The notes: generated by a model not told the origin, from the sequence alone. DNA of 64,000 nt from Thermoplasmata archaeon (GCA_003552585.1 PUNK01000035.1:93-64092), one strand, 5' to 3'; numbered from the stretch's first letter, positions 11,741 through 59,952 are shown. A program made the numbers and translations.

Positions 11741-11947
11741 CCCAACGGATAAATTACCTTTCGGTCGAACCGATAATAATTATGTAGGTTATAGTTTTCT
11801 TATGGAAAATACACCCCTTTTCGCCCGTTTGATCCTTCCAAAAAGAATAAAACTATACTAAATCTTTTATAGGACTTGCTTTCATCAATCCTTCCCTGAA
11901 GAGTTGTTTCCTCTTCACATATGCTAATATCCCAAGGAGGATCAAAT

Positions 11948-22293: not shown

Positions 22294-22340
22294 TTTTGCG
22301 AAAAAGTTTATACCTTTTGTATCTAATCAGCCGATAGTTT

Positions 22341-23591: not shown

Positions 23592-23603
23592 GGAGATCGT
23601 CAG

Positions 23604-45716: not shown

Positions 45717-47676
45717 GCTTTACGAAAGACTTTGTCGAAGAGTGAATCAACTTGTAGGTGTCGATAGGGAGACGCTGGAATCTCGAAGGGAGGAGAAGAG
45801 AGATAAATTTTTAGAAAGTAAGGATGATCTGAGAAGGGCAGAGGTGAGTTTGAGAGAAGCATCGATATTAGATGGGAAGGGATCCAAAGAGTACAAAGAA
45901 GCTTCAAGTGAAGTCGAAAGAAAAAAGAAAATTTTGAAGAGGGCGAAGGAGTCATATACCCAGGAACGATTCGAGAAAACAGTATATTTTACTGGTATGG
46001 ACCTTGTGCAGGAGGAGGTTTTAAATTTTGCCGTAGTAGTCTTTTTAACTACCTTTTTCGCACTTCTTACAGGTATATATGTCTATCATATCTATCGTCC
46101 TATGAGTATTGTAGAACTTACTATGTACGTGATCCCCACCCTCCTCATCATCCCTTTACTTTCATTGTTATTTACCGCCAATTATCCGGAAATACTTGAG
46201 AAACGATTACAGGCAGAGTCAATAGGTAAAGCTCCTGAGAGTATCAATTATATGACCATGTCTATGAGGGTAAAACCTTCACTATTTCAAGCCCTGAAAT
46301 TCGCTTCTGAAAATGCTGAGGAGCCCATGGCCAGCGGATTAAAAAAGGTACTTTGGGAGGTATACACACGAAAGAGGTCTAGCATAGAAGAGTCCTTCAT
46401 GGCCTTCGCTCTCGAATGGGGTGAATGGAACGATGACCTAAAAAGATCTTTATTCTCTATTCGCTCAGCCGTGCTCGAAAAAACAAAAGAGGGCCTGGAA
46501 GGTTCGTTAGAACGGGCTAACGATATCATAATCGATGGAACCAAACAACAGGTAAAAGAATTTTCAGACTCTTTGAGCATGCCCACCACCGTTCTTTTTG
46601 CGATAGGTATAATCCTTCCCATAATGATCGGGGCCTTACTCCCAATGATGAGTATAAGCGACCTGGACATGATGCAGGAACAAACTACGAGCGGAGTCGG
46701 TATCTTTCAGATGGTTTTGATGATGAACATCGTCACCCCCATCGCTGCATTCATGTATTCCTACTATATACTATCAAAACGCCCAGGCACCGTTTCACTG
46801 CCACGCGTCGACCTTAGAGAGGATAAAACATCGGCTTTCATCGCTTTCATCATATTCGTTATTCTCTTTTTTGTATTTTATATATCTAGGGGATCTTTAT
46901 CTTATTTGATGCCACTACCTCTATTGTGGCCCCCCGTCTTTTCCCTTTCCTTTTACTTGTTGGTCACATCCTCAAAACCACGTCAGACTAGGAGGGAATT
47001 TATAAAGATGGAGAAGGAATTTCCAGATACTCTTTTTCAACTGGGCAGCCGCTTGGCTGAAGGTGCCCCTGTAGAAACCGCTCTCACATCGGTTTCCAAA
47101 AGTATGGAGGGAGCCAAGATAGCTGAGTTATTTACAAGGATATCTAACACGTGTAGGCTGCATCAGATGTCTATGGAAACCGTACTTTTCGGTAAAGAGG
47201 GTATGCTGAATGAACACCCTTCAAGTATGATAAGAGCCAGTATGAAAGCGGTAGTATCATTATCAAAAAAAGTGGCTGGTGAGGCGGGATTAACTGTGAT
47301 GCGGATTTCTAATTACCTTAAAGATATGCAGATGATGGAAGAGGATATGCGATCCGAACTTTACAGCTCGGTACAGATGATGGAAGCTACATCTATGTTC
47401 TTTGCACCTGTGGTCATGGGGGTTGTTACCGGGATGTACCATCTACTGTATGAGATATTCTTGGATATCTCAGGAGCACAATTGATATCGCCCTCGAATT
47501 TTACTGCTGTGATCTCGGTTTACTTATTGACCACCGGTTTTGTCGTAACTTACTTTACAGAGGGGATAAAATCTAGAAATGATCCTATCGAGTTTAGATA
47601 CTCACTAGGAAGGATGCTTCTTGTATGTACCGTACTTTACTCCACTGTCCTCTGGTTATCGGGTCTACTCCTCTGA
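45709..47676 (+). CDS. polytopic membrane platform protein (FlaJ/TadC-like, T2SS-F-like)
   Basis: 655 aa. Alternating cytoplasmic helical domains and TM bundles. Start overlaps the ATPase stop by 8 nt. Confidence 0.55.
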   Translation: MSRLYERLCRRVNQLVGVDRETLESRREEKRDKFLESKDDLRRAEVSLREASILDGKGSKEYKEASSEVERKKKILKRAKESYTQERFEKTVYFTGMDLVQEEVLNFAVVVFLTTFFALLTGIYVYHIYRPMSIVELTMYVIPTLLIIPLLSLLFTANYPEILEKRLQAESIGKAPESINYMTMSMRVKPSLFQALKFASENAEEPMASGLKKVLWEVYTRKRSSIEESFMAFALEWGEWNDDLKRSLFSIRSAVLEKTKEGLEGSLERANDIIIDGTKQQVKEFSDSLSMPTTVLFAIGIILPIMIGALLPMMSISDLDMMQEQTTSGVGIFQMVLMMNIVTPIAAFMYSYYILSKRPGTVSLPRVDLREDKTSAFIAFIIFVILFFVFYISRGSLSYLMPLPLLWPPVFSLSFYLLVTSSKPRQTRREFIKMEKEFPDTLFQLGSRLAEGAPVETALTSVSKSMEGAKIAELFTRISNTCRLHQMSMETVLFGKEGMLNEHPSSMIRASMKAVVSLSKKVAGEAGLTVMRISNYLKDMQMMEEDMRSELYSSVQMMEATSMFFAPVVMGVVTGMYHLLYEIFLDISGAQLISPSNFTAVISVYLLTTGFVVTYFTEGIKSRNDPIEFRYSLGRMLLVCTVLYSTVLWLSGLLL

Positions 47677-48201
47677 AATATTTCTTACGTGATCTATCCC
47701 TCTTTTTAAAGCACGCATGTTAAGATCTACAAACCTTGGTGGAACGGTATCCTTTACAGATTCCTCCAGCGCCTTTTCAGGGACGAGTCCAGCGGCTTCG
47801 TTGAAAGCCCCTATCATGACTATATTTGCAACGATGGTGTTACCCAACTCTTCGGCTATGTTTTTTGCTGGGACCTTTATCGCCTCTTCATAGTCTACAT
47901 AGGGGACCGTGTCCGGATCGATAACTACTACCGCATCATCGCTGAGGTCGTTGCTGTATTTGTCGAAGGCAGCCTGGGACATGACCATCATGTACTGGGT
48001 TTCAGGAAGTCCGCTGTAACCGATCTCTCTATCTGATATGATCACCTCTGAACGGGCTGCACCTCCTCTTGCCTCTGGCCCATAACTCTGTGCCTGGATC
48101 GCTTCGTAATCGTGGAAAACACTGGCAGCCTTTCCGAGGATATAGCCTGCGGTCATGATCCCTTGTCCCCCACTCCCGCACAAGCGTATATTTTTTCTCA
48201 T
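47665..48201 (-). CDS. korG: 2-oxoacid:ferredoxin oxidoreductase gamma subunit
   Basis: N-terminus IRLCGSGGQGIMTAGYILG typical of Por/Kor gamma. Confidence 0.8.
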   Translation of the reverse strand: MRKNIRLCGSGGQGIMTAGYILGKAASVFHDYEAIQAQSYGPEARGGAARSEVIISDREIGYSGLPETQYMMVMSQAAFDKYSNDLSDDAVVVIDPDTVPYVDYEEAIKVPAKNIAEELGNTIVANIVMIGAFNEAAGLVPEKALEESVKDTVPPRFVDLNMRALKRGIDHVRNISEE

Positions 48202-49061
48202 TCTTCCAACTCCTTCAAAAGTCTGTAATATCTTTCCTCTAGTGGTTCACGCTCCTCTTCATGAAGGACTCCGATCTTTATCATCTTGTCTGCCCTTTCT
48301 TTTTCCTCTTCAGAACCGAACTTCTGGATCTTTTCATAATCCTCTACAAGTATGGTGTTCTTCTCGTAGAATTCCCACAGATCCTGTAGCTGCCTGTACC
48401 TATTCCGCCGTCCGTAGGCTGTTGGACATGGTGAAAGTAGCTCGATCAGTGAAAAACCATTGTTTTCTAAGCCCTCGCTTATAGAGCTGATCGGTTGATG
48501 CGGTCTGAACACGGGCCACTTTGCAACGTAGCTGGCACCCGATGAGATAGCCATCTTGCTTATATCGAATGGTGGTTCTATGTTGCCGTAAGGTGCTGTT
48601 GTTGCCTTATCCTTCTCAGGAGTAGTTGGGGCAACCTGCCCGCCGGTCATACCGTAAATAAAATTGTTGACGACGATAACTGTCATGTTGAGATTTCTCC
48701 TGGCAGCGTGGATGAAATGGTTTCCACCAATACCTATACAGTCACCGTCGCCTGTGAAAACGATCACATTGAGGTCGGGTTCACTCATCTTCACTCCTGT
48801 GGCGAATGCCAGGGCACGTCCGTGTGTAGTATGTAGTGCATCCGCTTCTATGTAACCTGGTATCCTTGACGAACAACCGATACCGGAAAGGAAAACGGTT
48901 CTATCCATATCAAGTCCCACTCTATCTACGGCTCTGAGGGTGTAATCTATCACGTTACCTAGACCACAGCCGTCGCAGAAAATATGCGGCATCATATCCT
49001 TCCGTAGATATTTTTCTTGTAATTCCTTTCCACTGATCATCTTTTTATTATCATTGGCCAT
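48198..49061 (-). CDS. korB: 2-oxoacid:ferredoxin oxidoreductase beta subunit (TPP-binding)
   Basis: TPP motif GDGDCIGIGGNHFIHAARRNLNMTVIVVNNFIYGMTGGQ. Confidence 0.85.
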   Translation of the reverse strand: MANDNKKMISGKELQEKYLRKDMMPHIFCDGCGLGNVIDYTLRAVDRVGLDMDRTVFLSGIGCSSRIPGYIEADALHTTHGRALAFATGVKMSEPDLNVIVFTGDGDCIGIGGNHFIHAARRNLNMTVIVVNNFIYGMTGGQVAPTTPEKDKATTAPYGNIEPPFDISKMAISSGASYVAKWPVFRPHQPISSISEGLENNGFSLIELLSPCPTAYGRRNRYRQLQDLWEFYEKNTILVEDYEKIQKFGSEEEKERADKMIKIGVLHEEEREPLEERYYRLLKELEE

Positions 49062-49065
49062 CCTA

Positions 49066-50214
49066 TCACACCTCCTTCAGTATCTCATCCGGTGTATGCA
49101 CTTCGCCCCCGATCTTACTAGAAAGGACGACTTCACAGTCTGCGAACTCTTTTACCTTGTGATACAACTGTCCGGTATTCATCTCCACCACTACTATTTT
49201 ATCGACTTTTTTGGACAATTCTTTTACCGGGTCATTTGGGAAAGGCCACAGTGTTTTAAGCCTAAGGTATCCGATCTTTTTACCTTGATCTCGCCCTTTC
49301 GACATCGCTCCCAGGGCACTGCGGCTTGCTAGCCCATAGGAAAGAAGAACCACATCAGCGTCTTCGATGTTCCTCTCTTCAATATCTGTCAGCTCTTCCC
49401 GGTCATCAGTGATCTTTTCTATCTGTCTTCTCACGAGTCTATCGTGGTCCTCCTGGTCATCTGTAGCCGGAAAACCGTACTCATTGTGTGTAAGCCCTGT
49501 GACATAAGTGTGATATCCTGTACCGAAGGCAGCGAATTCGGGTACTTTTATATTCCCGTAATTCCCTTCGCCGAAAGGTACGTATTCTTCGGGTGGAACA
49601 TCAGGTTTCTTCCTTTCAAAAAGTTCGATTTCATCTGGGATGACAACTTTCTCTCTCATGTGTCCTATATCGGCACTGATCATCACGAACACCGGGCTCC
49701 TGTACTTTTCAGACAGGTTGAAAGCCTTGATCGTCAAATCGACCGTTTCTTGTATGGTATTCGGTGATAGTGCTATTGCCTGGTAGTCACCATGACTGCC
49801 GTACCTTGACTGCATGACGTCTCCTTCCGCTCCAAGAGTGGGTTGACCCGTGGAAGGGCCGGACCTTTGGACGTTTGCGAGTACGAGAGGAGTTTCAGTC
49901 ATGTAGGCAAAACCAATATTTTCCTGCATAAGCGAAAAACCTGGTCCGCTCGTGGCTGTCATAGCCTTTGCCCCTGTCCAGGAGGCTCCGATGACGGCAG
50001 CGATACTGGCCAATTCGTCTTCCATCTGTATATTCACTCCACCCACTTTAGGTATCAAGCTGGCCATCATCTCGGCGATCTCAGATGCAGGAGTGATCGG
50101 GTATCCTCCGTAGAAATTGCAACCCGCAAGAAGGGCACCGTAACAGACGGCGGTATCCCCGTGTATGAACTGCTTCTTTGGACCAAGAACTTTTTTTACC
50201 TTCTCAAGATTCAT
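49066..50214 (-). CDS. korA: 2-oxoacid:ferredoxin oxidoreductase alpha subunit
   Basis: GDTAVCYGALLAGCNFYGGYPITPASEI N-terminal core. Confidence 0.85.
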   Translation of the reverse strand: MNLEKVKKVLGPKKQFIHGDTAVCYGALLAGCNFYGGYPITPASEIAEMMASLIPKVGGVNIQMEDELASIAAVIGASWTGAKAMTATSGPGFSLMQENIGFAYMTETPLVLANVQRSGPSTGQPTLGAEGDVMQSRYGSHGDYQAIALSPNTIQETVDLTIKAFNLSEKYRSPVFVMISADIGHMREKVVIPDEIELFERKKPDVPPEEYVPFGEGNYGNIKVPEFAAFGTGYHTYVTGLTHNEYGFPATDDQEDHDRLVRRQIEKITDDREELTDIEERNIEDADVVLLSYGLASRSALGAMSKGRDQGKKIGYLRLKTLWPFPNDPVKELSKKVDKIVVVEMNTGQLYHKVKEFADCEVVLSSKIGGEVHTPDEILKEV

Positions 50215-50495
50215 GATCTGCCCCCAGCCTTTTTCTTTCTATCCACACCACAGCAGAGGAGTACCTTTTCCTTTTTAGAGGATTTTTTCTCCTCTTCCTC
50301 CTCGACTATGATGGCAAAATCAGGACATATCATCTCGCACAATCTACAACCGGTACACTTATCTTCGATCTCGATGGGTTCGTAGATGCCTCTCTCGTTG
50401 AGCTCTTCAGCCCTTTCCAGAGCATCGACGGGGCAGAAGCGTATGCACAGCCCACATCCCTTGCAGTATTCTTTGTTTACTTCTATCATTTTCAA
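50211..50495 (-). CDS. korD: 2-oxoacid:ferredoxin oxidoreductase delta subunit (2x[4Fe-4S] ferredoxin) with charged Cys-containing C-terminal tail
   Basis: CKGCGLCIRFCP and CTGCRLCEMICP. Tail EEEEEKKSSKKEKVLLCCGV. Confidence 0.75.
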   Translation of the reverse strand: MKMIEVNKEYCKGCGLCIRFCPVDALERAEELNERGIYEPIEIEDKCTGCRLCEMICPDFAIIVEEEEEKKSSKKEKVLLCCGVDRKKKAGGRS

Positions 50496-50501
50496 TCCAC
50501 C

Positions 50502-52157
50502 TTATAGGGTGACGCTAATGTCTAGATGCCTTTCCAATACCTTTTTACCTCTGTATTCTGGCAGCAACCTCGGCGAAGTGTCTTTAGTATCTATACCGGC
50601 CTTTTCGAGGTCTTCTGTATGTTTATCGATGTGTTCGAGGCTCAATTTTGCAGGTGAACCGGCTTTCTGAGCCCGTTTCGCGGCGGCCATACCCGCTCGT
50701 CTTCCGAAAACGTTGAAATCCAGTAATGAATTACCCATCAGACGGTTCTTACCGTGGATCCCACCTGAAACTTCACCACTAGCGAATAAACCTTTAACAG
50801 GAGTAGATCCGTCGGGATTTATCACAAGACCTCCATTCTGGTAGTGGAGCGTTGGGAAAACAAGTATCGGGTCCTTTGTCATGTCTATACCGAACCTCTT
50901 GTATTGTCTGACCATGGCCGGAAGCCTGTCTTCTATAGTTCCTTCGCCTTCCAACTCGTCTATCAGAGGCGAGTCAAGCCATACTCCTTTCATACCTGTA
51001 GGAGTCGTGACCCCTTTTTCTCTTCCATAGCACTCTCGGATTATCGCGGCGGCTTCAACATCCCTCGGTTCAAGAGGGTTGACGAACATCTCACCGTCAA
51101 CATTCACCGGTTGAGCGCCCAGACTTCTTACTTTCTCCGTGACTAGGAGACCTACGACTTGATCAGGATGTGCAGCGCCTGTCGGGTGATACTGTACACT
51201 GTCCATATCTCTTAGAGGTACGCCCGCCCGATAACCCATGACAAGACCATCAGCTGTCGCACCGTAATGGTTCGTGGTCGGATAGGATTGTATGTGAAGT
51301 CTGCCGAATCCACCTGTGGCCATGATGGTGGATTTTGCTCGAACGACATAATATTCGTTCGTTTCGAGGTTCATCAGCAATGCTCCTGTCACTTCTCCGT
51401 TTCCATCTGTAAGTAGTTCGACTGCCGGAGCGAATTCTAAGACCGGTATATCTTTGTTCCTGAATTCGTCTCTTAGTACCCTCATTATCTCCATACCGGT
51501 ATAATCGCCCGCCGAGTGAAGTCGGTATCTTGATGTCCCTCCTCCCGGAAGTTCAACGAAATCGCCGTCTTTATCCCTATCGTACATCACACCGAGTTCT
51601 TCATGCCACTTCATTATCTTAGGCGCATCCTCGGTGAGCGCTTTCAATAAAGCCTCGTCATTAGTGAAGTGCCCTCCTCCTATGGCATCTAGGTAATGTT
51701 GTATAGGCGAATCGATCTCTTTATCAGCAGCCTGTATGCCTCCCTGGGCCATCATGCTGTTCGAGTCTCCGTGCCTCAGCTTCGTGGCCAAAAGGATATT
51801 TTCGGGAGAGATTCCCTCTTTGACGGCCCATAGAGCGGCTACGGTACCGGCTCCGCCACCGCCGATTATCAATATATCGACATCGTGATCTATCTGTGAC
51901 AAGTCCACCTCATCCGGATCTATCAGGCTTGGTGAATGGAGCAGTTGAGCTAATTCGACAGGGGCCTTTTCACCCTTGCTGGGACCAACGACCAGTTCTT
52001 TTTTACCTTCTTCCCTGTAATCCGGATGGAACCTGTTGAGGACCTCTTCAGATTCTTCCGCACCCATCCTTTCGAAGGTCTTTCCAACCCTTTCAGACCG
52101 GGTTTTTTCGACCTTTTCGATGGACTTCCTCATGTGATCTGGGTAACCGTCTTCCAT
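50502..52157 (-). CDS. fumarate reductase/succinate dehydrogenase flavoprotein subunit (TfrA/SdhA-like) with ~90-aa N-terminal extension
   Basis: FAD motif IIGGGGAGTVAAL. RHGDSNSMMAQGG (covalent-FAD His region). Catalytic region HYTMGG-like. Confidence 0.8.
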   Translation of the reverse strand: MEDGYPDHMRKSIEKVEKTRSERVGKTFERMGAEESEEVLNRFHPDYREEGKKELVVGPSKGEKAPVELAQLLHSPSLIDPDEVDLSQIDHDVDILIIGGGGAGTVAALWAVKEGISPENILLATKLRHGDSNSMMAQGGIQAADKEIDSPIQHYLDAIGGGHFTNDEALLKALTEDAPKIMKWHEELGVMYDRDKDGDFVELPGGGTSRYRLHSAGDYTGMEIMRVLRDEFRNKDIPVLEFAPAVELLTDGNGEVTGALLMNLETNEYYVVRAKSTIMATGGFGRLHIQSYPTTNHYGATADGLVMGYRAGVPLRDMDSVQYHPTGAAHPDQVVGLLVTEKVRSLGAQPVNVDGEMFVNPLEPRDVEAAAIIRECYGREKGVTTPTGMKGVWLDSPLIDELEGEGTIEDRLPAMVRQYKRFGIDMTKDPILVFPTLHYQNGGLVINPDGSTPVKGLFASGEVSGGIHGKNRLMGNSLLDFNVFGRRAGMAAAKRAQKAGSPAKLSLEHIDKHTEDLEKAGIDTKDTSPRLLPEYRGKKVLERHLDISVTL

Positions 52158-52160
52158 CTT

Positions 52161-52862
52161 CTATCCCTCCTCCTCGAACTTACGTTCTTCATAGCACTTT
52201 TTGAGCTCATCTATAGTCATCTTCAACATCTCTTCGTATTCTTCAGTATATATTCCTTCCTCTAGCTCTTTTATCCTTTTCTCAAGCTCACTGCTGTCTA
52301 GATCCAGATATCGTCCTTTTAATCGTCTCGCCAGCTGGGCAAGATGGTAGTGTTTTATATCTGCTGGACATCTGATGGAGCAGAGCCCACAGTGTAAGCA
52401 GTCGAATGAGAGCTTTGCAGTCCTTTCGACGTCGCCGCGTAAAGCAGCTTGGACATAATCCATCACTTCGATGTCTTGAGGACAGGCCTTGCTGCACGTG
52501 TTACAGCTGACACATCTAGCGATCTCGGGATAGAGATCGAGTAACACGTTGTCCTTCTCCCCAGGATCCACGTCTTCTATTTCATATGCTTCCCTGAGGG
52601 CGGGTACGAAGGGTAACTGCACCAGGAACATCCCGTCTTCGACCGCAGTTTGACATGCGAGATCCATCTTGAGCTTATAGTCATCTTCCTTTCTATATAC
52701 GGTGGAACAGGCTCCACAGAAACCTCCTCTGCAGCCGCATCCCCTCACATACTTGTAACCAGCGTATTCGAGTGCAGTCATTATAGTGAGTCCCTCGGGA
52801 ACCCTGTATCTCCTGCCCATGACGTATATGTCTATCATATTTTGTTCTTCTTGATCAGCCAT
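52161..52862 (-). CDS. iron-sulfur subunit (SdhB/FrdB-like: [2Fe-2S] + 2x[4Fe-4S])
   Basis: CGCRGGFCGAC plant-ferredoxin-like cluster, then CVSCNTCSKACP and CLHCGLCSIRCP. Confidence 0.75.
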   Translation of the reverse strand: MADQEEQNMIDIYVMGRRYRVPEGLTIMTALEYAGYKYVRGCGCRGGFCGACSTVYRKEDDYKLKMDLACQTAVEDGMFLVQLPFVPALREAYEIEDVDPGEKDNVLLDLYPEIARCVSCNTCSKACPQDIEVMDYVQAALRGDVERTAKLSFDCLHCGLCSIRCPADIKHYHLAQLARRLKGRYLDLDSSELEKRIKELEEGIYTEEYEEMLKMTIDELKKCYEERKFEEEG

Positions 52863-52867
52863 TCATA

Positions 52868-53722
52868 TCACTCCAAGAAATCTTTAAGCGCACCTCTTGG
52901 GTTTATCTTATGTTTTTTTAGCCCCGCTTCCATACCGAACGACAGCGCCATCAACTCGGTGAGGTATAACACGGGTATTTTATGATCACTAACTCGTTGA
53001 TGATAATCGAGGTTGAACTGACATAACGGACACGAGAGTGCTATTACATCCGCCCCGTCTTCAGCGGCACGTGCCACGATCTCCTCGACCCTATTTTCCA
53101 CGATATCTCCCCTGTTCACTGTATGGTAAGAACCGCAGCACTCGGTCCTTTTGGGATTAACGATGGTATTTGCACCAAGGAGCTCGAGTATGTCCTCCAT
53201 GATCATCGGATCTTCGGTGTTATCTATGGAAACATGGTTCGGCCTTAGCAACATGCATCCGTAATAAGTGACGACGTTCAAACCGTCTAGTGGCTTTTTG
53301 ACCAACTTTTTTATCTCATCCTTCATATCTCTAAAAAGTTCAAAGATGTGATGAACTTCGACCTGACCTTCGTAATCAGGGTCTTCGTCCAAAAATTCAT
53401 TCATCGTTTCCAGTTCATCCGGTTTTTCTTTCATCCTCTTGTTGGCCTGTTTCAGCACGTTGTAGCACATATCACAGAGGGTGACCAGTTCTCTCTCACC
53501 TTGCTCTTGAGCACACAACATGGTCCTCACAGCGGCGATCTGATGCATTATGTCATCTGTTGCCAGGGACTGCACGGCGCCGCAGCAGTACCAGTTATCC
53601 ATTTCAACCAGTGGTTTACCCAATGCTTCCATGACCTTTTTAGAGCTCTCTTCGTAGTCACTGGCCTTGGTTTTTAACGTGCATCCAGGATAATAAAGGT
53701 AGCCATCCTCCATCTGTATCAC
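52868..53722 (-). CDS. HdrB-like protein with two CCG domains (heterodisulfide reductase B / TfrB C-terminal half / SdhC type E-like)
   Basis: YYPGCTL..., WYCCGA and ECCGSYH Cys-rich CCG motifs. Confidence 0.75.
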   Translation of the reverse strand: MIQMEDGYLYYPGCTLKTKASDYEESSKKVMEALGKPLVEMDNWYCCGAVQSLATDDIMHQIAAVRTMLCAQEQGERELVTLCDMCYNVLKQANKRMKEKPDELETMNEFLDEDPDYEGQVEVHHIFELFRDMKDEIKKLVKKPLDGLNVVTYYGCMLLRPNHVSIDNTEDPMIMEDILELLGANTIVNPKRTECCGSYHTVNRGDIVENRVEEIVARAAEDGADVIALSCPLCQFNLDYHQRVSDHKIPVLYLTELMALSFGMEAGLKKHKINPRGALKDFLE

Positions 53723-54105
53723 CCCGTCTCCTTCCTGAAGCAGCCGACTACGGCGAGCTGAGGTAGCTCCTCTATGTTATCTAAACCATCCAGGTCGACC
53801 ATATCTATATCCTCTCTCAGCAAAGTCAATCTGACCGCTTCCATTATCTTAGCGATGTCTATATCTCTTGGACATCTTACGCTGCAGGTAAAACAGGCCG
53901 CACAGATCCACATCGTGTTGTTTTTCATTATCCCCTCTCGATCCCCTAAAACTATCCGCTTGAATATCCTTTCTGGTAATACATCCATCTCTTCAACAAA
54001 AGGACATCCTGCGGAACAGGTACCACAGCGTATACAAGCATTTACCGACTCACCTGACAGCTCTTCCACCTTTTCTAGAAATTCCAGATCCCTTTTCACC
54101 TTCAT
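53719..54105 (-). CDS. HdrC-like 2x[4Fe-4S] ferredoxin subunit
   Basis: CIRCGTCSAGCP and CAACFTCSVRCP; 128 aa. Confidence 0.7.
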   Translation of the reverse strand: MKVKRDLEFLEKVEELSGESVNACIRCGTCSAGCPFVEEMDVLPERIFKRIVLGDREGIMKNNTMWICAACFTCSVRCPRDIDIAKIMEAVRLTLLREDIDMVDLDGLDNIEELPQLAVVGCFRKETG

Positions 54106-55559
54106 GATCTACCACCCAATCCCTGTGAAAAGGTCTTATAGACTTTTTTATCGTTATCGTAAAGGGTCACTTTCATGGGCGTATCCCCCATAGCTGAGTG
54201 GGTAGCACAAGCAAGACACGGATCGTAGGCTCTGAACGCTCTTTCAACACTGTTGAGCATACCTTCTTTTACATCTCCACCGTCAACGTATTTTTTTGCT
54301 GCGTCCCTGACACTCATGTTTATCGCTGCGGCATTGTGAAGAGTAGCTACGATGAGGTTCACCTCTTCTACAAGCCCCTCCTCGTCAAGTGTGTAATCAT
54401 GTATCAGTGTTCCTCGGGCAGCTTCAACTATACCTACACCTTTCCCGGGCTCACCGGGTTCGTTCCTTATATCGTTGTCCTCGATATTATCATCACGGAT
54501 CAGTTCATCTACCAGCTCGGCTGCCTGGAGGATCTCTATCAATCTCGCCCAGTGATAGGAAAGGGTTGAGTGAGCAGGCTTACCGCCCAGTGTTTCGAAC
54601 ATCTCTTCGTATTCTTCCTGAGCCTTGGGCGTCTGCATACCGTCCGCCGCATTCAACCTACCCAAAGTACCTACACGGTAAACTCCTGAATCTTCTCCCT
54701 CTTCAAATCCCTTCCATCCTATATCTTTCAGGTATGGGAATTTCATGTAGCTCCATGGTTCGACGTGCTCTCTTATCACATCCAAGTAATCCGCACCGGA
54801 GAACTCGGCATACTTCTTTCCGTCGGGATCAACGACCCTGACTTTACCATCCTTGTGGCTCACCTTATCATCTTTGACGAGACCCATGCTGTAGAGCTCT
54901 AAACGGTCCTCTTCTATGGGTTTTTTGTACTCCTTGAGTATCTTGTCTTTGAATAGATCGAGTGAAAATTTGGCGAAGTCCACCATCCCTTCGGAGATGT
55001 CCATTATCTCTTCCCTTTCATCAGGAGCTAGGGATCTGCTGACACCACCGGGTATTCCGAACATCGGATGGATAGCTTTGCCACCTAGTGTCGAGATCAC
55101 CCTTTGTCCGTTAGCTCTCTGTCGGATGACCTGCTTACCAACGTCGACTCCCATCTTATTTATGATGCCGATTATATTCCTCTCCTCCTTCGGTGCGTCG
55201 ACACCCATTATGAAATCGGGACTCGCTAGATAATAGAAATGAAGCAGGTGGTCAGCGTAGATATAGCCGTTGTACATCAATTCTCGCAGCTTGTTAGCCG
55301 TCTCAGTGGGTTCAACCCCGTAGGCGTCGTCCAGCGCCTTCGTGGCGGCCATGTGATGAGCCACGGGACACACACCACATATCCTGCTGGTCAGAGAGGG
55401 CATGTCCTCCGCTCTTCTACCCTGACAGAACTTTTCAAATCCTTTGTATTCGGGTACCTGCAGGTAAGCGTTCTTAACGTTCTTTTGTCCGTCCAAAAAT
55501 ATGTCTATCTTGCCGTGTCCTTCAAGTCTTGTTATCGGATCTATCGATATCTTATCCAT
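54102..55559 (-). CDS. mvhA: [NiFe] hydrogenase large subunit (F420-non-reducing hydrogenase MvhA-like)
   Basis: N-terminal RICGVC Ni-binding motif and C-terminal DPCLACATH motif, followed by a ~30-aa maturation tail. Confidence 0.85.
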   Translation of the reverse strand: MDKISIDPITRLEGHGKIDIFLDGQKNVKNAYLQVPEYKGFEKFCQGRRAEDMPSLTSRICGVCPVAHHMAATKALDDAYGVEPTETANKLRELMYNGYIYADHLLHFYYLASPDFIMGVDAPKEERNIIGIINKMGVDVGKQVIRQRANGQRVISTLGGKAIHPMFGIPGGVSRSLAPDEREEIMDISEGMVDFAKFSLDLFKDKILKEYKKPIEEDRLELYSMGLVKDDKVSHKDGKVRVVDPDGKKYAEFSGADYLDVIREHVEPWSYMKFPYLKDIGWKGFEEGEDSGVYRVGTLGRLNAADGMQTPKAQEEYEEMFETLGGKPAHSTLSYHWARLIEILQAAELVDELIRDDNIEDNDIRNEPGEPGKGVGIVEAARGTLIHDYTLDEEGLVEEVNLIVATLHNAAAINMSVRDAAKKYVDGGDVKEGMLNSVERAFRAYDPCLACATHSAMGDTPMKVTLYDNDKKVYKTFSQGLGGRS

Positions 55560-56526
55560 CTACATCACCTCTGCGGTACTGCAGGTAACTGCTTGGAAGA
55601 CTGAACGTGTAGAACGAGCCAGTAGGATCCCTTATGCTGTCTATCGCCTCTTGAAGTTCGTCCTCTTCCATATTCTCTTCCCCTTCTATACCAACTACGG
55701 AAGCCAATGCGGAAAGCATCCTCGATCCCTGGTCTTTCATGCCTCTCACCGGACCGTTGCATCCGACACATGGATGAGCTGCTACCGATGGGCAAGGGGC
55801 TTCACACATCCCCGCCGTGGCAGGACCCATGCACAGGACACCTTGGTCAAGTATACACTTCTCTGGATCTATACTGACTTCCTGTATCGGTCTTATCTTC
55901 TCTATCCTCTTTTCCTCCCTATCCATCGCACACACGTCACAAACACTCTTCTGGGAGATCAGGTCGTACTTACCCACGTCTTCGTCACCCAAAAGGGCGG
56001 TGAACGCCTCTTCAAGCTGGACAGGTAAAGGGGGACATCCTGGAAGATAATGATCCACCTCTATCACCCTATCCAGGGGAACGACGTGATGTAGTAGAGA
56101 CGGTAATTCGAGTTCCCCTTCCTCCACCTTTGATTCATTTTGAGGTCTTACACCATCGTCTGTAGAGCGTGTCGAGTAACCGACCTCTATCAGTTCCTCC
56201 TTTGAAGAGAGGTTACCCAGGCCGAAGAGTCCCCCGATGCTCGAACATGAGCCGTAGGCAACGACCTTTTTAGCTTTCTCTCTGATGAGTTCGACCATCT
56301 CTTTGTTCTCTTCAGACCTTATCGAACCGTTTATGAAAGCTATGTCGATCTCCTCGTCCTCCATTGCTTCTAGGTCTTCATATTTAGGATCCATAGCACA
56401 GGGCCAGAAAACGATGTCAGCCTTTTCTATAACGTCAAGTATCATCTCGTCTATGTCGAGTACACTAACTTCACAACCACCACATGCGGCACACCAGTAA
56501 AACGCGATCTTTTTCTTCATCATCAT
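55552..56526 (-). CDS. mvhG: [NiFe] hydrogenase small subunit (MvhG-like)
   Basis: IAFYWCAACGGCEVS proximal cluster motif and further Cys clusters. Confidence 0.85.
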   Translation of the reverse strand: MMMKKKIAFYWCAACGGCEVSVLDIDEMILDVIEKADIVFWPCAMDPKYEDLEAMEDEEIDIAFINGSIRSEENKEMVELIREKAKKVVAYGSCSSIGGLFGLGNLSSKEELIEVGYSTRSTDDGVRPQNESKVEEGELELPSLLHHVVPLDRVIEVDHYLPGCPPLPVQLEEAFTALLGDEDVGKYDLISQKSVCDVCAMDREEKRIEKIRPIQEVSIDPEKCILDQGVLCMGPATAGMCEAPCPSVAAHPCVGCNGPVRGMKDQGSRMLSALASVVGIEGEENMEEDELQEAIDSIRDPTGSFYTFSLPSSYLQYRRGDVDG

Positions 56527-56948
56527 TCCTCCAGGGGCACATCGCTCAGGTCGAGAGGACCGAGCTGTTTCACTTCTTCAACCATTTCTTTCATAACTTT
56601 TGCGAACTTACCCCCCTCCGCTGATGATATCCATTCTAGACGCAATCTTTCCGGGTTTATCCCCATATCTTTTAGTATCTTGGACATCATCTCTATCTTC
56701 CTTTTGGTCTTATAGTTCCCGTTTATATAATGGCAGTCTCCCGGGTGACATCCTGCCACTAGTACCCCATCAGCTCCCTCCTGAAACGATTCGAGGACGT
56801 GCTCAGGTGAAACACGGGAGGAGCACATCAGGCGGATACTCAATATGTTGGGCGGGTACTGTTCCCTGTTAACGCCGGCCAGGTCGCCTCCTGCGTAACT
56901 GCACCAATTACAGAGAAAAGCTATGATCCTTGGTTCATGCTCATCCAT
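56523..56948 (-). CDS. mvhD: methyl-viologen-reducing hydrogenase delta subunit (MvhD)
   Basis: PRIIAFLCNWCSYAGGDLAG typical MvhD [2Fe-2S] region. Confidence 0.85.
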   Translation of the reverse strand: MDEHEPRIIAFLCNWCSYAGGDLAGVNREQYPPNILSIRLMCSSRVSPEHVLESFQEGADGVLVAGCHPGDCHYINGNYKTKRKIEMMSKILKDMGINPERLRLEWISSAEGGKFAKVMKEMVEEVKQLGPLDLSDVPLEE

Positions 56949-56949
56949 A

Positions 56950-59900
56950 TCACATCACCTCTTCTTCCATCAAGGCCGCCTGTATCATGGCGTTGATCGT
57001 CTCGTTATCGTATCCCTTTTGGTCTATAGCGCCTATGGGACAAACACTGGCACATGCTCCGCATCCTTTACACAACACGTCCGTTATCTTTGCTATCTCA
57101 TCTTCAGGATCGTGTTCTATCGCACCATAAGGGCACACGGATATGCACATCTTACATCCGCTGCATAGATCATCGTCCACTACTGAGATTATACCTTCGC
57201 TCTTGGAGTAGCCTTTCATCATGGGTACGAGTGCTTTGGAAGCTGCACCTTCAGCCTGGGCTAACGTATCAGCGACGTTCTTCGGATAATGGGCGCCCCC
57301 TGCTAGATAAACGCCTTCTGATGGGAATTCAAGCGGTCTAAGCTTAGCGTGGGCTTCCATGTAGAAGCTTGCAGGATCAGAGGCCACCTTCAACATCTTC
57401 TTAAGATCGTTGACGCTCGAGTCGCCCTCTAGCTGCATCGCCAGTACAAGGTAATCCGCATCGATCTCGAGGTCCTCGTCCAACAAGTTGTCGTGAACTT
57501 TGACACCGATCCTTTCACCCACTTCTATCTCTGGTTCGTTCTCGGTGGAATACCTGAGGAATATGACACCTTCATCCCCCTCGACTTCCATATAATATTC
57601 TTCTTCTTTCTTACCGAACACTCTCATATCCTTGTAGAGTATGTATACGTTCGCGTCAGGGTAGCGTCTTTTTATCTCTTTGGCATTCTTCAGGGAGTTA
57701 CCACAGCCAACCCTGCAGCACCACGGACGCTCTTCCTCTAGAGCTCCGACACAGTTGATGAAGACGATGTCTTTCGGTTCCTCCAGCTCATCCTTCTTTA
57801 GAGATCGGTCGAGCTCGAGCTGGGTCATGATCCGGTCATCTTCACCGTAAGAATAGAAATCCTTCGGATCTATCTCTTGGAATCCGGTTGCGAGTACAAT
57901 CGTGTCGACCTCGATCTCTTCTTCGTTAACGGTAACTTCGTAGTTGCCTATGTACCCGTCTATACCTTCGATCTTTGCAGAGGTGATAACCCTGATGTCT
58001 TCTTCATCGATTTGATGTATCAGTTCTTTAGCGAATTTCTCTGCATCTATCTCGGATGGGAAAAGGGTGTCTAATTCGTTCAGCTTGCCTCCCAATCTAT
58101 CCTCCTTTTCCACAAGGGTGACCTCCTGTCCGGTTTGAGAAAGGCTCAAAGCCGTGCGCATACCTGCCGGCCCCCCACCGATAACAAGGGTCCTGTTGCC
58201 AACATCGATCTCGCTTTCGGTCAGAGCATAAAGCCTTCTTGCCTTAGCCACGGCCATCTTTGTTAGGATTTCCGCCTTCTTGGTTGCTTTCTCGTTGTCA
58301 TCACTGTGTACCCAACTGCACATGTTACGGATGTTAGCCATCTCGAAAAGGTACTTGTTCAATCCTGCTTCCTCGAGGGTCTGCTGGAACACCTGCTCGT
58401 GAGTTCGGGGTGAACAGGCGGAAACGACTATCCTGTTCAGATCATGTTCATCTATGGCCTCTTTGATCAATTTCTGGGCATCCTCAGAACATGCGAATAC
58501 GGAATCGTTTACGTATACGACTCCCGGCAGGTCTTTAACAGATTCTGAAACGCTGTTGACATCTAGATAATTGGCGATGTTTTTACCGCAGTGACACACG
58601 AAAACACCTATCCTGGGTTCCTGATCAGACACATCTTTTTCAGGTGTCTTTTCAGTTTTCTTTTTCCACCTTTCTCTTCCTTTGAGCGGTTCAAGAGCTC
58701 TCCCTGCAGCTCCACTCCCTTGGGCAACACTGTCCGGTATGTCCTTTGGCGACTGGGCACAGCCTGCTAGGTATATGCCCTCTCTTGAAGAATCCATAGC
58801 ATCGGTGAGATCCTCTTTGGATTGGAAGAATCCGTTCTCATCCAATTCTATATCCAATATCTTTGACAGCTCTTCGTTTCCCGAGGAAGGCATGATGGCT
58901 GACGAAAGGACGACCATGTCGACGTGGTCCGTTTTAACCTCTCCTTTCTCGGTATCCTCAAATTCTATGGCTAAACTACCATCCGGTTCTTCGTAAATAC
59001 GAGAGGGCCTTCCACGTATGTAATTCACTCCCTTCTTTTTTGCCTTGTCGTAGTACTGCTGGAAGTCCTTACCATAGGTCCTCATGTCCATGTAATATAT
59101 GGAGGTATCAACATCGGACATCTCGCTTTTAGTGATGGATGCCTGCTTCGTTGCATACATACAGCAGACCCTAGAACAGTAAGGCATACCCTTTTGTTTG
59201 CAGCGTGAACCGACACATTGGATCCATGCTATCGACTCAGGTTCTTTGCCATCTGAGCGCTTCAACGGTTTTCCACCGGTTGGGCCCGAAGCCGACATCA
59301 ATCTTTCGAACTCCAAGGCCGTGTAAACGTTGTCATATCTGGTGTATCCATACTCGTCTCTCCATTCCTGTGGCTGCATCATCTCGTAACCAGTGGCCAC
59401 TATGATACTGCCCACCTCTATCTCTATCTCTCGTGATTTTTCAAGGAAATCTATGGCATCTGCATCACAAATGCGCTCGCAAGCACAACAGCCCACGCAG
59501 TGGTCATAGTCAATCGTATATGTTAGAGGGACAGACTGTGGATATTCCACATATATCGCTTTTCTATAGCTCATCTCCTGTTCGAATTCACTAGGAACCT
59601 GAACGGGACAGGCATCTGCACAATCTCCACATCCTGTGCAGATATCAGGATCCACGTATTTCGTTTTTTTCCAGATCTTAACATTGAATCTTCCGGCACT
59701 TCCAAGCACTTCTTTGACCTCTGAGTAAGTAAGGATGTCGATATTCTCGTTTCTGCTCGCTTCTACCATCTTTGGCGAAGATATACAGATAGAACAGTCA
59801 TTTGTGGGAAAGGTCTTATCCAGTTTGACCATATTTCCCCCGATACTAGGGGATTTATCCACGATTACAACCTCGTAACCCTTTTCAGCCAGATCAAGAG

Positions 59901-59952
59901 CGGATTGAACACCGGTGATTCCGCCTCCGATTATTAGGACGTCTTTTTTCAT
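56950..59952 (-). CDS. hdrA: large HdrA-like flavoprotein (1000 aa) with two dinucleotide-binding modules, internal MvhD-like segment and C-terminal 2x[4Fe-4S] ferredoxin
   Basis: VLIIGGGITGVQSALDLA at aa 5 and TLVIGGGPAGMRTALSL at aa ~600. RIGVFVCHCGKNIANYLD (MvhD/HdrA-insert-like) at aa ~450. CSGCKMCISVCP and CKGCGACASVCP at the C-terminus. Confidence 0.8.
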   Translation of the reverse strand: MKKDVLIIGGGITGVQSALDLAEKGYEVVIVDKSPSIGGNMVKLDKTFPTNDCSICISSPKMVEASRNENIDILTYSEVKEVLGSAGRFNVKIWKKTKYVDPDICTGCGDCADACPVQVPSEFEQEMSYRKAIYVEYPQSVPLTYTIDYDHCVGCCACERICDADAIDFLEKSREIEIEVGSIIVATGYEMMQPQEWRDEYGYTRYDNVYTALEFERLMSASGPTGGKPLKRSDGKEPESIAWIQCVGSRCKQKGMPYCSRVCCMYATKQASITKSEMSDVDTSIYYMDMRTYGKDFQQYYDKAKKKGVNYIRGRPSRIYEEPDGSLAIEFEDTEKGEVKTDHVDMVVLSSAIMPSSGNEELSKILDIELDENGFFQSKEDLTDAMDSSREGIYLAGCAQSPKDIPDSVAQGSGAAGRALEPLKGRERWKKKTEKTPEKDVSDQEPRIGVFVCHCGKNIANYLDVNSVSESVKDLPGVVYVNDSVFACSEDAQKLIKEAIDEHDLNRIVVSACSPRTHEQVFQQTLEEAGLNKYLFEMANIRNMCSWVHSDDNEKATKKAEILTKMAVAKARRLYALTESEIDVGNRTLVIGGGPAGMRTALSLSQTGQEVTLVEKEDRLGGKLNELDTLFPSEIDAEKFAKELIHQIDEEDIRVITSAKIEGIDGYIGNYEVTVNEEEIEVDTIVLATGFQEIDPKDFYSYGEDDRIMTQLELDRSLKKDELEEPKDIVFINCVGALEEERPWCCRVGCGNSLKNAKEIKRRYPDANVYILYKDMRVFGKKEEEYYMEVEGDEGVIFLRYSTENEPEIEVGERIGVKVHDNLLDEDLEIDADYLVLAMQLEGDSSVNDLKKMLKVASDPASFYMEAHAKLRPLEFPSEGVYLAGGAHYPKNVADTLAQAEGAASKALVPMMKGYSKSEGIISVVDDDLCSGCKMCISVCPYGAIEHDPEDEIAKITDVLCKGCGACASVCPIGAIDQKGYDNETINAMIQAALMEEEVM

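Follow-up and report, generated by a model that had tools for sequence, protein, structure and literature searches.

Complementary HdrA modules fused in one polypeptide: a tandem HdrA encoded with an Mvh-type hydrogenase in a Thermoplasmata archaeon

Canonical HdrA works as a homodimer with two FAD. Its C-terminal ferredoxin domain is part of an arm that docks MvhD, and Cys197 of the M. thermolithotrophicus protein is donated to the N-terminal iron–sulfur (FeS) cluster of the partner subunit. Action of this cysteine in trans has been described (PMC9012536). For Mvh/Fdh/Elp-Hdr complexes, PMC12350162 presents a structural model in which a mobile arm passes electrons to the partner subunit's FAD. 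From this partner FAD, the high-potential electron travels through the subunit's own [4Fe-4S] cluster to HdrC/HdrB, and the low-potential electron, by way of a shuttle cluster, enters the inserted ferredoxin domain of the partner.

Enlarged forms of HdrA are known as well. Tandem HdrA has already been published; many phyla of archaea and bacteria have it, in some cases encoded by a pair of neighbouring genes. Type II HdrA is a fusion of classes A6 and A12 (PMC12054007), and the same architecture has been reported in PMC9430772 (Sporomusa and Moorella HdrA), PMC12054007 and PMC11237513, with two FAD measured for Moorella HdrA (PMC5861303). What sets HdrL, Moorella HdrA and ‘type III’ HdrA apart is an NAD(P)H-binding insert, GltD, the small subunit of glutamate synthase (PMC2702500, PMC9430772, PMC12054007). 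Here, we describe a tandem HdrA encoded in a 64-kb stretch of DNA (64,000 nucleotides; the window) from a Thermoplasmata archaeon, and discuss how its two halves and its operon might work together.

The gene (56950..59952, minus strand, as are all features below) starts with ATG and encodes 1000 aa in a frame without interruption, the longest possible in that frame. As the original prediction from the sequence had it, this is about 1.5x the normal size of HdrA (643-671 aa for the solved canonical chains in the PDB). A phmmer search of the PDB matches HdrA chains (E=1.6e-205) in three collinear pieces: aa 5-375 align to residues 154-524 of canonical HdrA, aa 438-597 to residues 4-163, and aa 855-996 to residues 516-655. 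Two dinucleotide motifs had been predicted, and a regular expression run on the translation finds both as GGGxxG: GGGITG at aa 9-14, where expected, and GGGPAG at aa 592-597, some 13 residues away from the expected position (~605). A CxCGxNI segment (CHCGKNI, aa 453-459, 58576-58596) indeed lies between them, and a separate mvhD follows immediately downstream, beginning one base past the hdrA stop codon. The proposal of two flavin-type dinucleotide-binding modules also holds, as all FAD-fold motifs are kept in both halves and are invariant in 118 homologues. As read from its sequence, the protein consists of two diverged partial HdrA modules in one chain.

This architecture is widespread. More than 115 full-length homologues (997-1085 aa, 54-79% identity) occur in independent assemblies (NCBI, JGI, ENA, Logan), and a Logan contig from SRR490150 encodes an identical protein. 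Retrieval with the module 1 peptide patterns KTFPT[ND]DC and YCSR[VI]CCM added 80 loci, from distinct GTDB species genomes, that match query residues about 1-995 collinearly. The split form is found in 10 loci, where separate A6-like and A12-like genes adjoin: a ~440-aa gene matching aa 1-423, and then a ~560-aa gene matching aa 435-997.

Module 1 (aa 1-425, 58678..59952) is a thioredoxin-reductase-like FAD domain carrying an inserted ferredoxin domain, without the N-terminal domain and without the C-terminal ferredoxin domain. It matches residues 146-566 of 5ODC HdrA with 482.8 bits, is 48% identical to canonical HdrA (three-way alignment) and reaches a Foldseek TM of 0.93 to the HdrA core 8rwn_A. 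GGGITG, the first FAD dinucleotide-binding motif, lies at 59911..59928, followed by a CSIC motif (C53, C56; 59785..59796) in which C56 is the equivalent of Cys197 and is invariant in 118 homologues; at this site, 30 of the 80 related loci have a TGA (selenocysteine) codon. The inserted ferredoxin domain (aa 97-172, 59437..59664) holds the invariant cysteines for 2 x [4Fe-4S] (C105, C108, C111, C115, C152, C155, C158 and C162) and is predicted to be the ferredoxin-reducing exit. The FeS cysteines C246, C259, C263 and C264 (59146..59217), again invariant, correspond to C386, C399, C403 and C404 of 5ODC; counted per residue on the same alignment, K269 in this stretch is K409, and E216 upstream is E356. 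Equivalents of Lys409 and Glu356, close to N5 of the flavin, characterize the bifurcating type of HdrA, and in module 1 both are invariant. The four-cysteine [4Fe-4S] site in the FAD domain that characterizes the HdrA superfamily is present in both modules, shifted by one position in module 2.

The modules are joined by a Lys/Glu-rich linker (aa 426-445, 58618..58677) that coincides with the gene boundary of the split-gene relatives. Module 2 starts with an MvhD-like FeS domain (aa 446-580, 58213..58617; C453, C455, C488, C513, C545) that matches canonical residues 4-163 with 154.6 bits, the match running on into the next domain. The original prediction had described an embedded MvhD-like segment, and the segment does sit between the two modules; however, as it aligns collinearly with the following FAD domain to canonical HdrA residues 5-245, it is the ordinary N-terminal domain of the second HdrA module and not an embedded extra. 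The FAD domain (aa 586-912, 57217..58197; GGGPAG at 58162-58179) lacks both the Cys197 pair (FPSEIDAE instead) and the inserted ferredoxin domain. At the position of E356, where most relatives have Glu, this domain carries D715, and K755 is the equivalent of K409. In its FeS motif, C734...C745-C746-R-V-G-C750 (57700..57753), one cysteine is displaced compared to the canonical C...CSRVCC; alignment columns show this CCRVGC shift to be confined to the clade of the window protein, the other clades keeping CSRVCC. The C-terminal ferredoxin domain (aa 920-985, 56998..57195; 2 x [4Fe-4S]) matches canonical residues 516-655 with 133.6 bits. Module 2 is 44% identical to canonical HdrA (three-way alignment) and by itself covers all of it except for a clean gap at ~246-323, i.e. 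the inserted ferredoxin domain.

The two halves complement each other: the Cys197 equivalent and the inserted ferredoxin domain are found only in module 1, and the N-terminal domain, like the C-terminal ferredoxin domain, only in module 2. Going by domain content, one chain amounts to a canonical dimer lacking one of each pair of accessory domains. Between the modules, identity is 31.5%, as opposed to 48% and 44% to canonical HdrA, which argues for an old fusion of diverged paralogues and rules out a recent internal duplication. Across the 118 homologues, none of the 33 cofactor-linked cysteines varies, and neither do E216, K269 and K755. Among the 80 GTDB loci, module 1 keeps its Glu and Lys, the Cys197 pair never occurs in module 2, and the K409 position in module 2 is occupied by K, T, S, Q, D, H, E, R and others. 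Owing to the retrieval patterns, C53 and C259/C263/C264 are invariant among these loci partly by construction; E216 and K269 lie outside the patterns, though in the same domain. An AlphaFold2 model of the tandem HdrA (pTM 0.85, mean pLDDT 82) has HdrA chains as its only strong PDB matches in a single-chain Foldseek comparison.

We consider it likely (a probability of roughly 0.8) that the chain is a fused ‘tandem’ or ‘type II’ HdrA that plays both roles of the canonical homodimer, asymmetrically. It has the features of type II: a single chain uniting two FAD domains of the HdrA type, halves from distinct HdrA classes (A6-like and A12-like), and complementary loss of the N-terminal FeS domain and Cys197, the module 2 side of which holds in 80/80 loci. 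It departs from canonical type I in its two FAD domains and in the division of accessory domains between modules; with the NCBIfam equivalog models for HdrA, it stays short of the cut-offs (763 vs 1400; 753 vs 1300). Nor does it resemble HdrA2/type Ia, the HdrA-MvhD fusion of Methanosarcina, as the chain ends with the C-terminal ferredoxin domain, mvhD is a separate ORF, and NF040770 scores 1035.6 (cut-off 1100).

In such a fused dimer, module 2 would supply only the arm (N-terminal domain and C-terminal ferredoxin domain), docking MvhD-MvhGA, and module 1 only the receiving core, a FAD with the E216/K269 bifurcation signature. From there, the C246/259/263/264 cluster would lead to HdrC, and the inserted 2x[4Fe-4S] ferredoxin domain would be the exit; C56 would complete the cluster of the N-terminal domain in trans. 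The flavin domain of module 2 would mainly be a dimer-partner scaffold, possibly a non-bifurcating relay. With the arm contributed by module 2 only and the core by module 1 only, each chain would hold one complete bifurcation unit, not two, with 2 FAD and 7 [4Fe-4S] predicted compared to 2 FAD and 12 [4Fe-4S] in the canonical dimer. Of the two cross-subunit bifurcation units in the canonical dimer, the retained parts correspond to one, so the second flavin would be that of the partner subunit and not an extra input site. We infer the trans arrangement within the tandem HdrA, which of the FADs bifurcates, and the substrates.

Lyu et al. 2025 suggested for type II HdrA that both flavin domains are active, resulting in two bifurcation events per protein. 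They found K409/E356 in 75% of type II sequences (PMC12054007), and in module 2 of the window protein GGGPAG, the remaining FAD motifs, K755 and four cluster cysteines are present and clade-invariant, with Glu at the E356 position in most relatives. However, module 2 has no inserted ferredoxin domain to accept the low-potential electron, its E356 position is Asp in the window protein, and its K409 equivalent is replaced by many different residues in related loci. We regard two active sites as unlikely, at about one chance in eight.

The tandem hdrA opens an operon of twelve genes (59952 to 47665) that overlap by 1-8 nt or are separated by gaps of <=6 nt. It is followed by mvhD (56523..56948), encoding the 141-aa [2Fe-2S] subunit (Pfam FlpD, E=8.8e-56; NCBIfam VhuD); mvhG (55552..56526), encoding the [NiFe] hydrogenase small subunit by domain profiles; and mvhA (54102..55559), encoding a group 3c [NiFe] hydrogenase large subunit with the metal-site motifs RICGVC and DPCLACATH. 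Domain profiles also identify hdrC (53719..54105; 128 aa, 2 x [4Fe-4S]) and hdrB (52868..53722; 284 aa, two CCG domains), the latter about as close in score to CoB-CoM HdrB as to SdhE, a subunit of methylmenaquinol:fumarate reductase. The operon thus encodes A, G and D of a group 3c hydrogenase together with HdrB and HdrC next to HdrA, as expected of the MvhADG-HdrABC type. Next come an SdhB/TfrB-N-like iron–sulfur protein (52161..52862; 233 aa, [2Fe-2S] and dicluster) and a TfrA/FrdA-like flavoprotein (50502..52157; 551 aa). In the flavoprotein, the catalytic His/Arg/Thr/Glu residues are kept (equivalents of E. coli SdhA H242, T254, E255, R286, H354 and R399), the covalent-FAD histidine (H45) is replaced by Asn, and the best NCBIfam match is TfrA with 340 bits, below the cut-off of 718. 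The 233-aa protein contains no CCG domain, the mark of a TfrB-type fusion; such domains are instead carried by HdrB, a protein of its own. The last genes, oorDABC (47665..50495), encode a four-subunit 2-oxoacid (2-oxoglutarate-type):ferredoxin oxidoreductase. The same gene set is found in loci L001-L004, L010 and L081, with succinyl-CoA synthetase alongside in L081. Among the ORFs examined within the 64-kb window, there are no mcr or CoM/CoB biosynthesis genes, and relatives have been described as non-methanogens (PMC11287216).

What might this operon do? A tentative answer, to which we give somewhat less than even odds, is hydrogen-driven bifurcation to ferredoxin and to a fumarate-linked high-potential branch, with the ferredoxin used by Oor. 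MvhAGD would oxidize H2, and the electrons would be bifurcated to ferredoxin and to the high-potential branch, which would run through HdrCB to the adjacent fumarate-reductase-like FeS/flavoprotein pair, either directly or via a thiol/disulfide shuttle. The reduced ferredoxin would serve the 2-oxoglutarate-type ferredoxin oxidoreductase of the same operon. It is gene adjacency that suggests the fumarate link; HdrB could equally reduce some disulfide instead. One could speculate further, and here the odds are somewhat lower, that in this clade of halophilic Thermoplasmata and in the operon-sharing halophilic Chloroflexota the tandem HdrA forms the core of an undescribed supercomplex that couples H2 to ferredoxin and fumarate. 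Fumarate would take the place of CoM-S-S-CoB via HdrCB and the FrdB/TfrA-like pair, and ferredoxin would pass straight to 2-oxoglutarate synthase. The CCRVGC shift in module 2 might even reflect an additional electron path leading from this module to the fumarate reductase. If true, this would be a hydrogen-powered reductive TCA branch, and Hdr of non-methanogens would have a physiological acceptor of high potential that can be named.

Alternatively, the complex might not bifurcate at all, the tandem HdrA serving only as a link between the hydrogenase on one side and HdrCB with the fumarate-reductase-like enzyme on the other, uncoupled from ferredoxin. Electron transfer from H2 to fumarate is exergonic without such coupling, and non-bifurcating HdrA homologues exist, e.g. 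the sHdrA of sulfur oxidizers (6tjr). However, module 1 has the Glu/Lys signature and the complete inserted ferredoxin domain, the latter being absent from non-bifurcating forms, and the operon itself encodes a ferredoxin-dependent oxidoreductase, making this alternative unlikely.

Very unlikely, in our view, is the reading of the original prediction, in which the protein is an enlarged HdrA of the HdrL type, with an additional Rossmann module where NAD(P)H brings electrons in or carries them out. The protein does have two dinucleotide-fold motifs, generic Pfam and NCBIfam NAD-binding families match aa 585-700, and the tandem HdrA of Sporomusa ovata, also without GltD, has a weak NADH:benzyl viologen activity of 0.5 U/mg (PMC9430772). 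However, the GltD insert that defines HdrL, Moorella and type III HdrA is absent here: Pfam, NCBIfam, a PDB sequence search and a residue-by-residue three-way alignment revealed no GltD/NAD(P)H domain. The supposed likeness to HdrL fails on the lack of any GltD/Fer4_20 family match and on the three-way alignment, which leaves no stretch of more than ~20 residues unaccounted for. GltD chains in the PDB match only the generic Rossmann start (E=6.5e-6), aa 585-912 are collinear with the FAD domain of HdrA itself, and in both modules an FeS cysteine occupies the position of the pyridine-nucleotide GxGxxG of thioredoxin reductase. The donor encoded in the operon is a hydrogenase, and the operon encodes no NAD(P)H module. 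Nor does the second flavin add to the count of a working canonical dimer, which already has two FAD. Finally, the case that the original prediction had named against itself, an assembly or sequencing error joining two adjacent hdrA genes, can be dismissed: relatives with both modules as separate adjoining genes exist, but the frame is unbroken across a conserved linker, the identical protein stands on an independent Logan contig, and the fused form recurs in the full-length homologues and in 80 species genomes.

A double-size HdrA is in itself ordinary, and the operon context may matter more than the architecture. As a probable fused asymmetric dimer, the protein cautions against annotating chains of 1.5x length as HdrL-like. 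It also resembles a natural experiment in which exactly the parts of one trans-acting bifurcation unit are kept, consistent with the cryo-EM-derived mobile-arm model. The conserved 12-gene operon offers a testable candidate, fumarate, for the Hdr/Mvh acceptor in non-methanogenic archaea, with ferredoxin for reductive carboxylation.

How does this locus compare to described systems? Closest are classes A3/A4 (Lyu et al. 2025, PMC12054007) and HdrA3/4 (Chadwick et al. 2022, PMC9012536), which have two FAD domains in ~1000 aa, an N-terminal domain and Cys197 that are complementary between the halves, and are read as a self-contained heterodimer; their clusters likewise include mvhD and hdrBC. Two Methanoperedens loci (L019, L034) are collinear with the window protein over aa 1-992. 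The published A3/A4 and HdrA3/4 clusters draw on F420H2 and contain FdhB together with a molybdopterin protein that is inactive, whereas the window and loci from Methanomassiliicoccales and Bathyarchaeia pair the tandem HdrA with a full MvhDGA hydrogenase. By the text of Chadwick et al. (PMC9012536), the module order of ANME HdrA3/4 is reversed compared to the window protein, which also differs in its host, a halophilic Thermoplasmata lineage of non-methanogenic type, and in its shifted module 2 motif (CCRVGC).

The 942-aa HdrA of MetFV-HdrABC-MvhD, the methylene-THF reductase of Sporomusa ovata (PMC9430772), has the same domain order: an extra N-terminal FAD domain first, and then an MvhD-like domain, a FAD domain without inserted ferredoxin domain, and a C-terminal ferredoxin domain. 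It likewise has two FAD sites, and the bifurcation signature is found at one of these. Its N-terminal module lacks the inserted ferredoxin domain (5 clusters predicted, vs 7 here), so the window protein, unlike the S. ovata protein, would retain the canonical ferredoxin exit. The partner enzymes differ as well. Moorella thermoacetica HdrA (1487 aa), Desulfobacterium autotrophicum HdrL and type III HdrA are also enlarged, with more than one flavin domain and mvhD following, but they oxidize NADH and carry a GltD insert, absent from the window protein, that brings along a separate FAD, FeS cluster and NAD(P)H site.

All domains and cofactor-binding residues of the canonical MvhAGD-HdrABC homodimer (5ODC, 7BKB, 8RVU) are also present in the window protein, and the same partner subunits are encoded beside its gene; the difference is the loss of two-fold symmetry, and with it the predicted loss of the second bifurcation unit. 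The remainder of the operon recalls the kor-tfr-flx/hdr clusters of sulfur oxidizers with the rTCA cycle (Rubin-Blum et al. 2019, PMC6315080), in which hdr genes alternate with those for a TfrA-like fumarate reductase and a four-subunit 2-oxoglutarate:ferredoxin oxidoreductase, and for which a bifurcating Hdr complex feeding both enzymes was proposed. Those clusters use FlxABCD (NADH), whereas the donor module here is an Mvh hydrogenase and the host is archaeal. Compared to TfrAB, the thiol:fumarate reductase of Methanothermobacter, the window operon splits the functions of TfrB between the 233-aa FeS protein and a separate HdrB.

The open reading frame at 56950–59952 on the minus strand starts with ATG and runs for 1000 codons in one unbroken frame. 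Its product is about 1.5 times the normal size of HdrA, as the original prediction had stated, compared with 643–671 aa for the solved HdrA chains found by PDB sequence search. A regular-expression search of the translation places GGGITG at aa 9–14, CHCGKNI at aa 453–459 and GGGPAG at aa 592–597; both expected GGGxAG-type motifs are thus present, although the second lies ~13 residues before its anticipated position of ~605, and the CxCGxNI segment sits between them as described. The stand-alone mvhD expected immediately downstream is also found (56523–56948), encoding a 141-aa protein with a Pfam FlpD match (E=8.8e-56). The observation is therefore confirmed, while its interpretation is supported in part.

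In a PDB sequence search, three pieces of the protein match canonical HdrA, in an order that differs from that of single HdrA: aa 5–375 correspond to HdrA 154–524 (the FAD domain with its inserted ferredoxin domain), aa 438–597 to HdrA 4–163 (the N-terminal, MvhD-like domain), and aa 855–996 to HdrA 516–655 (the final part of the FAD domain, along with the C-terminal ferredoxin domain). Searched alone, the half aa 1–437 gives a single block against residues 146–566 of 5ODC, the canonical HdrA structure of Methanothermococcus thermolithotrophicus (483 bits), and the half aa 438–1000 spans all of canonical HdrA bar a clean gap at ~246–323, the inserted ferredoxin domain, as a three-way alignment also shows. 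These piecewise alignments resolve the chain into a FAD domain with inserted ferredoxin domain (module 1), a linker, and an N-terminal domain followed by a FAD domain and a C-terminal ferredoxin domain (module 2). What had been taken for an embedded MvhD-like segment is the ordinary N-terminal domain of module 2. An AlphaFold2 model built from a 118-sequence alignment has a mean pLDDT of 82 and a pTM of 0.85, its low-confidence loops lying in cluster-binding segments. Strong Foldseek matches in the PDB are confined to HdrA chains (5odc_A, TM 0.77; 8rwn_A, a core chain, TM 0.93), followed by generic thioredoxin and ferredoxin-NADP reductases, with no solved tandem HdrA among them.

A fused double-HdrA architecture has already been published, and the window protein is a tandem, or type II, HdrA. 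Fused HdrA3/4 and tandem genes whose losses of Cys197 and the N-terminal domain complement each other were reported by Chadwick et al. 2022, who proposed self-contained heterodimers (PMC9012536). Lyu et al. 2025 named the type II HdrA and derived it by fusing class A6, without N- and C-terminal domains, to class A12 (PMC12054007). The scheme of Rosenbaum et al. 2022 shows this order in the 942-aa HdrA of Sporomusa ovata and, with a GltD insert carrying an NAD(P)H site, in the 1487-aa HdrA of Moorella thermoacetica (PMC9430772), in which two FAD were found (PMC5861303). A 2024 survey reported two-HdrA-domain fusions across Asgard and TACK archaea (PMC11237513). For the fused HdrA3/4 of ANME archaea, the N-terminal FeS domain was placed in the N-terminal half (PMC9012536), opposite to the order seen here; however, all fused forms that we retrieved, including two from Methanoperedens (L019, L034), have the core first and the module with the N-terminal domain second, matching Rosenbaum et al. 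(PMC9430772) and the A6 plus A12 scheme (PMC12054007).

The original prediction had also likened the protein to HdrL, with an extra flavin/NAD(P)H site. Two flavin modules are present, but an NAD(P)H site is lacking and the likeness to HdrL is not supported: HdrL of Desulfobacterium autotrophicum is by definition HdrA fused to glutamate synthase and has an NADH site (PMC2702500), whereas Pfam-type family searches give no GltD match in the window protein and the three-way alignment leaves no spare residues that could house one. A recent internal duplication is rejected too, as the two modules are only 31.5% identical in the three-way alignment, compared with 48% (module 1) and 44% (module 2) to canonical HdrA. 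A sequencing or assembly error is excluded by more than 115 full-length homologues (997–1085 aa; NCBI, JGI, ENA and Logan assemblies), those named being from Thermoplasmata, Thermoplasmatota, Ca. Saliniplasma or Ca. Natronoplasma, and by an identical protein on a second contig (run SRR490150).

The sequence comparisons show the protein to be an ancient fusion in which two divergent HdrA paralogues meet at the linker (aa 426–445). In ten split-gene relatives, a ~440-aa gene (matching aa 1–423) adjoins a ~560-aa gene (aa 435–997) in the same order. A GTDB scan with one genome per species gave at least 600 matching segments, and the top 80 are all collinear with query residues ~1–995. These 80 loci come from Thermoplasmata, Methanomassiliicoccales, Methanomethylophilaceae, Asgard archaea, Bathyarchaeia, Archaeoglobi and Methanoperedens among archaea, and from Desulfobacterota, Chloroflexota, Planctomycetota and Desulforudis among bacteria. 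On one contig labelled Bacteroides salyersiae (L051), mvhD, mvhG and mvhA come after a tandem hdrA, as in Methanomassiliicoccales (L053, L061, L063); this is probably an archaeal contig mis-binned into a gut-derived bin.

The residues that bind cofactors in canonical HdrA are divided between the modules. Counted on the alignment to 5ODC, module 1 has C56 at Cys197, E216 at E356 and K269 at K409, the cluster cysteines C246/C259/C263/C264 at C386/C399/C403/C404, and the inserted ferredoxin domain with all eight of its cysteines. Module 2 carries the N-terminal-domain cysteines C453, C455, C488, C513 and C545 and eight cysteines in its C-terminal ferredoxin domain, with FPSEIDAE at the Cys197 and neighbouring sites, D715 at the E356 position and K755 at K409. 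The 118-homologue alignment (54–79% identity) shows no variation at any of these cysteines, at the four cluster cysteines of module 2 given below, at E216, K269 and K755, or at the glycines of either FAD fold. Together these residues predict a load of 2 FAD and 7 [4Fe-4S] clusters, against 2 FAD and 12 clusters for a canonical dimer with the published six per subunit (PMC5861303). The C56 equivalent is an in-frame TGA (motif FPTNDC..U), presumably selenocysteine, in 30 of the 80 loci, mostly Desulfobacterota (L011, L013, L023, L024, L027, L028 and 24 others), and ORF callers consequently cut these genes at ~residue 75. The cluster cysteines of module 2 are shifted (C734, C745, C746, C750; 57700–57753, aa 734–751), reading CCRVGC versus canonical CSRVCC. 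Among the 80 loci, CCR[VI]GC is confined to the window clade and the other 75 have the canonical C-S-R-V-C-C; the shifted motif accompanies the fumarate-reductase/oor operon type, with which it is phylogenetically confounded. Separately, module 1 has FFQSKEDLTDAM at aa 375–390 (~58783–58830) in place of the MEAHxKLRP that immediately precedes the last FAD motif in canonical HdrA and module 2.

In canonical HdrA, Cys197 of the other subunit completes the N-terminal FeS cluster (PMC9012536). In the published account of the electron path (PMC12350162), a mobile arm passes electrons on to the partner subunit's FAD. The high-potential electron leaves this FAD via its own cluster HA4' for HdrCB, and the low-potential one moves over the shuttle cluster HA3 to HA5', the inserted ferredoxin domain of the partner. 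The tandem protein would keep exactly one such trans-acting set, with module 2 supplying the arm domains and module 1 the FAD that receives the electrons, the HA4-type cluster, the Cys197 equivalent and the inserted ferredoxin domain. Because the one retained set is split over the modules, their losses are complementary, as is observed in the domain map and the conservation. We infer the trans geometry, and the one-set model would place the bifurcating flavin on module 1. The residues at E356 and K409 agree with this choice: among the 80 loci, which were fetched by module 1 peptide patterns so that module 1 conservation is partly by construction, module 1 keeps E/K strictly, while the K409 equivalent of module 2 varies among many residues.

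Elsewhere in the window, the stretch 22000–28000 is strongly skewed towards purines, with GC skew reaching 0.51 and AT skew 0.47. A 1326-aa ORF (23604–27584) falls in this region; its sole Pfam match is to the N-terminal region of RNase Y, and no single stretch of that match is significant by itself. A zinc-ribbon protein (22341–23591) lies just ahead of this ORF. A 2232-aa ORF (2079–8777), unusually large for archaeal AglB, has an AglB-like STT3 oligosaccharyltransferase domain at its N terminus together with many CarboxypepD_reg/transthyretin-like repeats.

Twelve genes are packed on the minus strand from 59952 to 47665, neighbours overlapping by 1–8 nt or lying no more than 6 nt apart, in an apparent single operon: tandem hdrA, mvhD, mvhG, mvhA, hdrC, hdrB, an SdhB-like [2Fe-2S]/dicluster protein of 233 aa, a TfrA/FrdA-like flavoprotein of 551 aa, oorD, oorA, oorB and oorC. 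HdrB scores nearly equally as CoB-CoM HdrB and as SdhE, the CCG subunit of methylmenaquinol:fumarate reductase. The flavoprotein (50502–52157), which is extended at its N terminus by ~90 residues that match no family, has TfrA of thiol:fumarate reductase as its top curated match (340 bits, under the family cut-off). It has equivalents of E. coli SdhA H242, T254, E255, R286, H354 and R399, and Asn at the covalent-FAD His45 position; the non-covalent FAD predicted from this fits a fumarate-reducing over a succinate-oxidising flavoprotein. The same gene set occurs in Ca. Natronoplasma (L001), in other Thermoplasmata (L004, L010), rearranged and adjoining succinyl-CoA synthetase (sucCD) in a 55%-identical relative (L081), and without mvhGA in two Chloroflexaceae genomes (L002, L003), including Ca. 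Viridilinea mediisalina. The latter are halophilic bacterial phototrophs whose operon, 50–56% identical to the archaeal version, looks like an inter-domain transfer among halophiles. Fumarase genes lie ~8 kb upstream of hdrA on the same contig, outside the window. A biotin protein of the pyruvate carboxylase B/oxaloacetate decarboxylase alpha type (11921–13744; HMGL-like, PYC_OADA and biotinyl domains) could be an oxaloacetate source for the reductive branch proposed below.

The twelve-gene set suggests a hydrogen-driven fumarate-to-2-oxoglutarate branch. We give roughly a one-in-three chance to the reading that H2 is bifurcated to ferredoxin and, via HdrCB, to fumarate, with the reduced ferredoxin used by the 2-oxoglutarate-type oxidoreductase; the fumarate branch would run through HdrCB either directly or by a thiol shuttle. 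Papers on these Thermoplasmatota note Mvh/Hdr and leave its role open (PMC11287216). The arrangement of hdr, fumarate-reductase-like and oor genes resembles the rTCA clusters of sulfur oxidisers, where kor, tfr and flx-hdr genes are interleaved and have been taken to mean that a bifurcating complex supplies both enzymes (PMC6315080).
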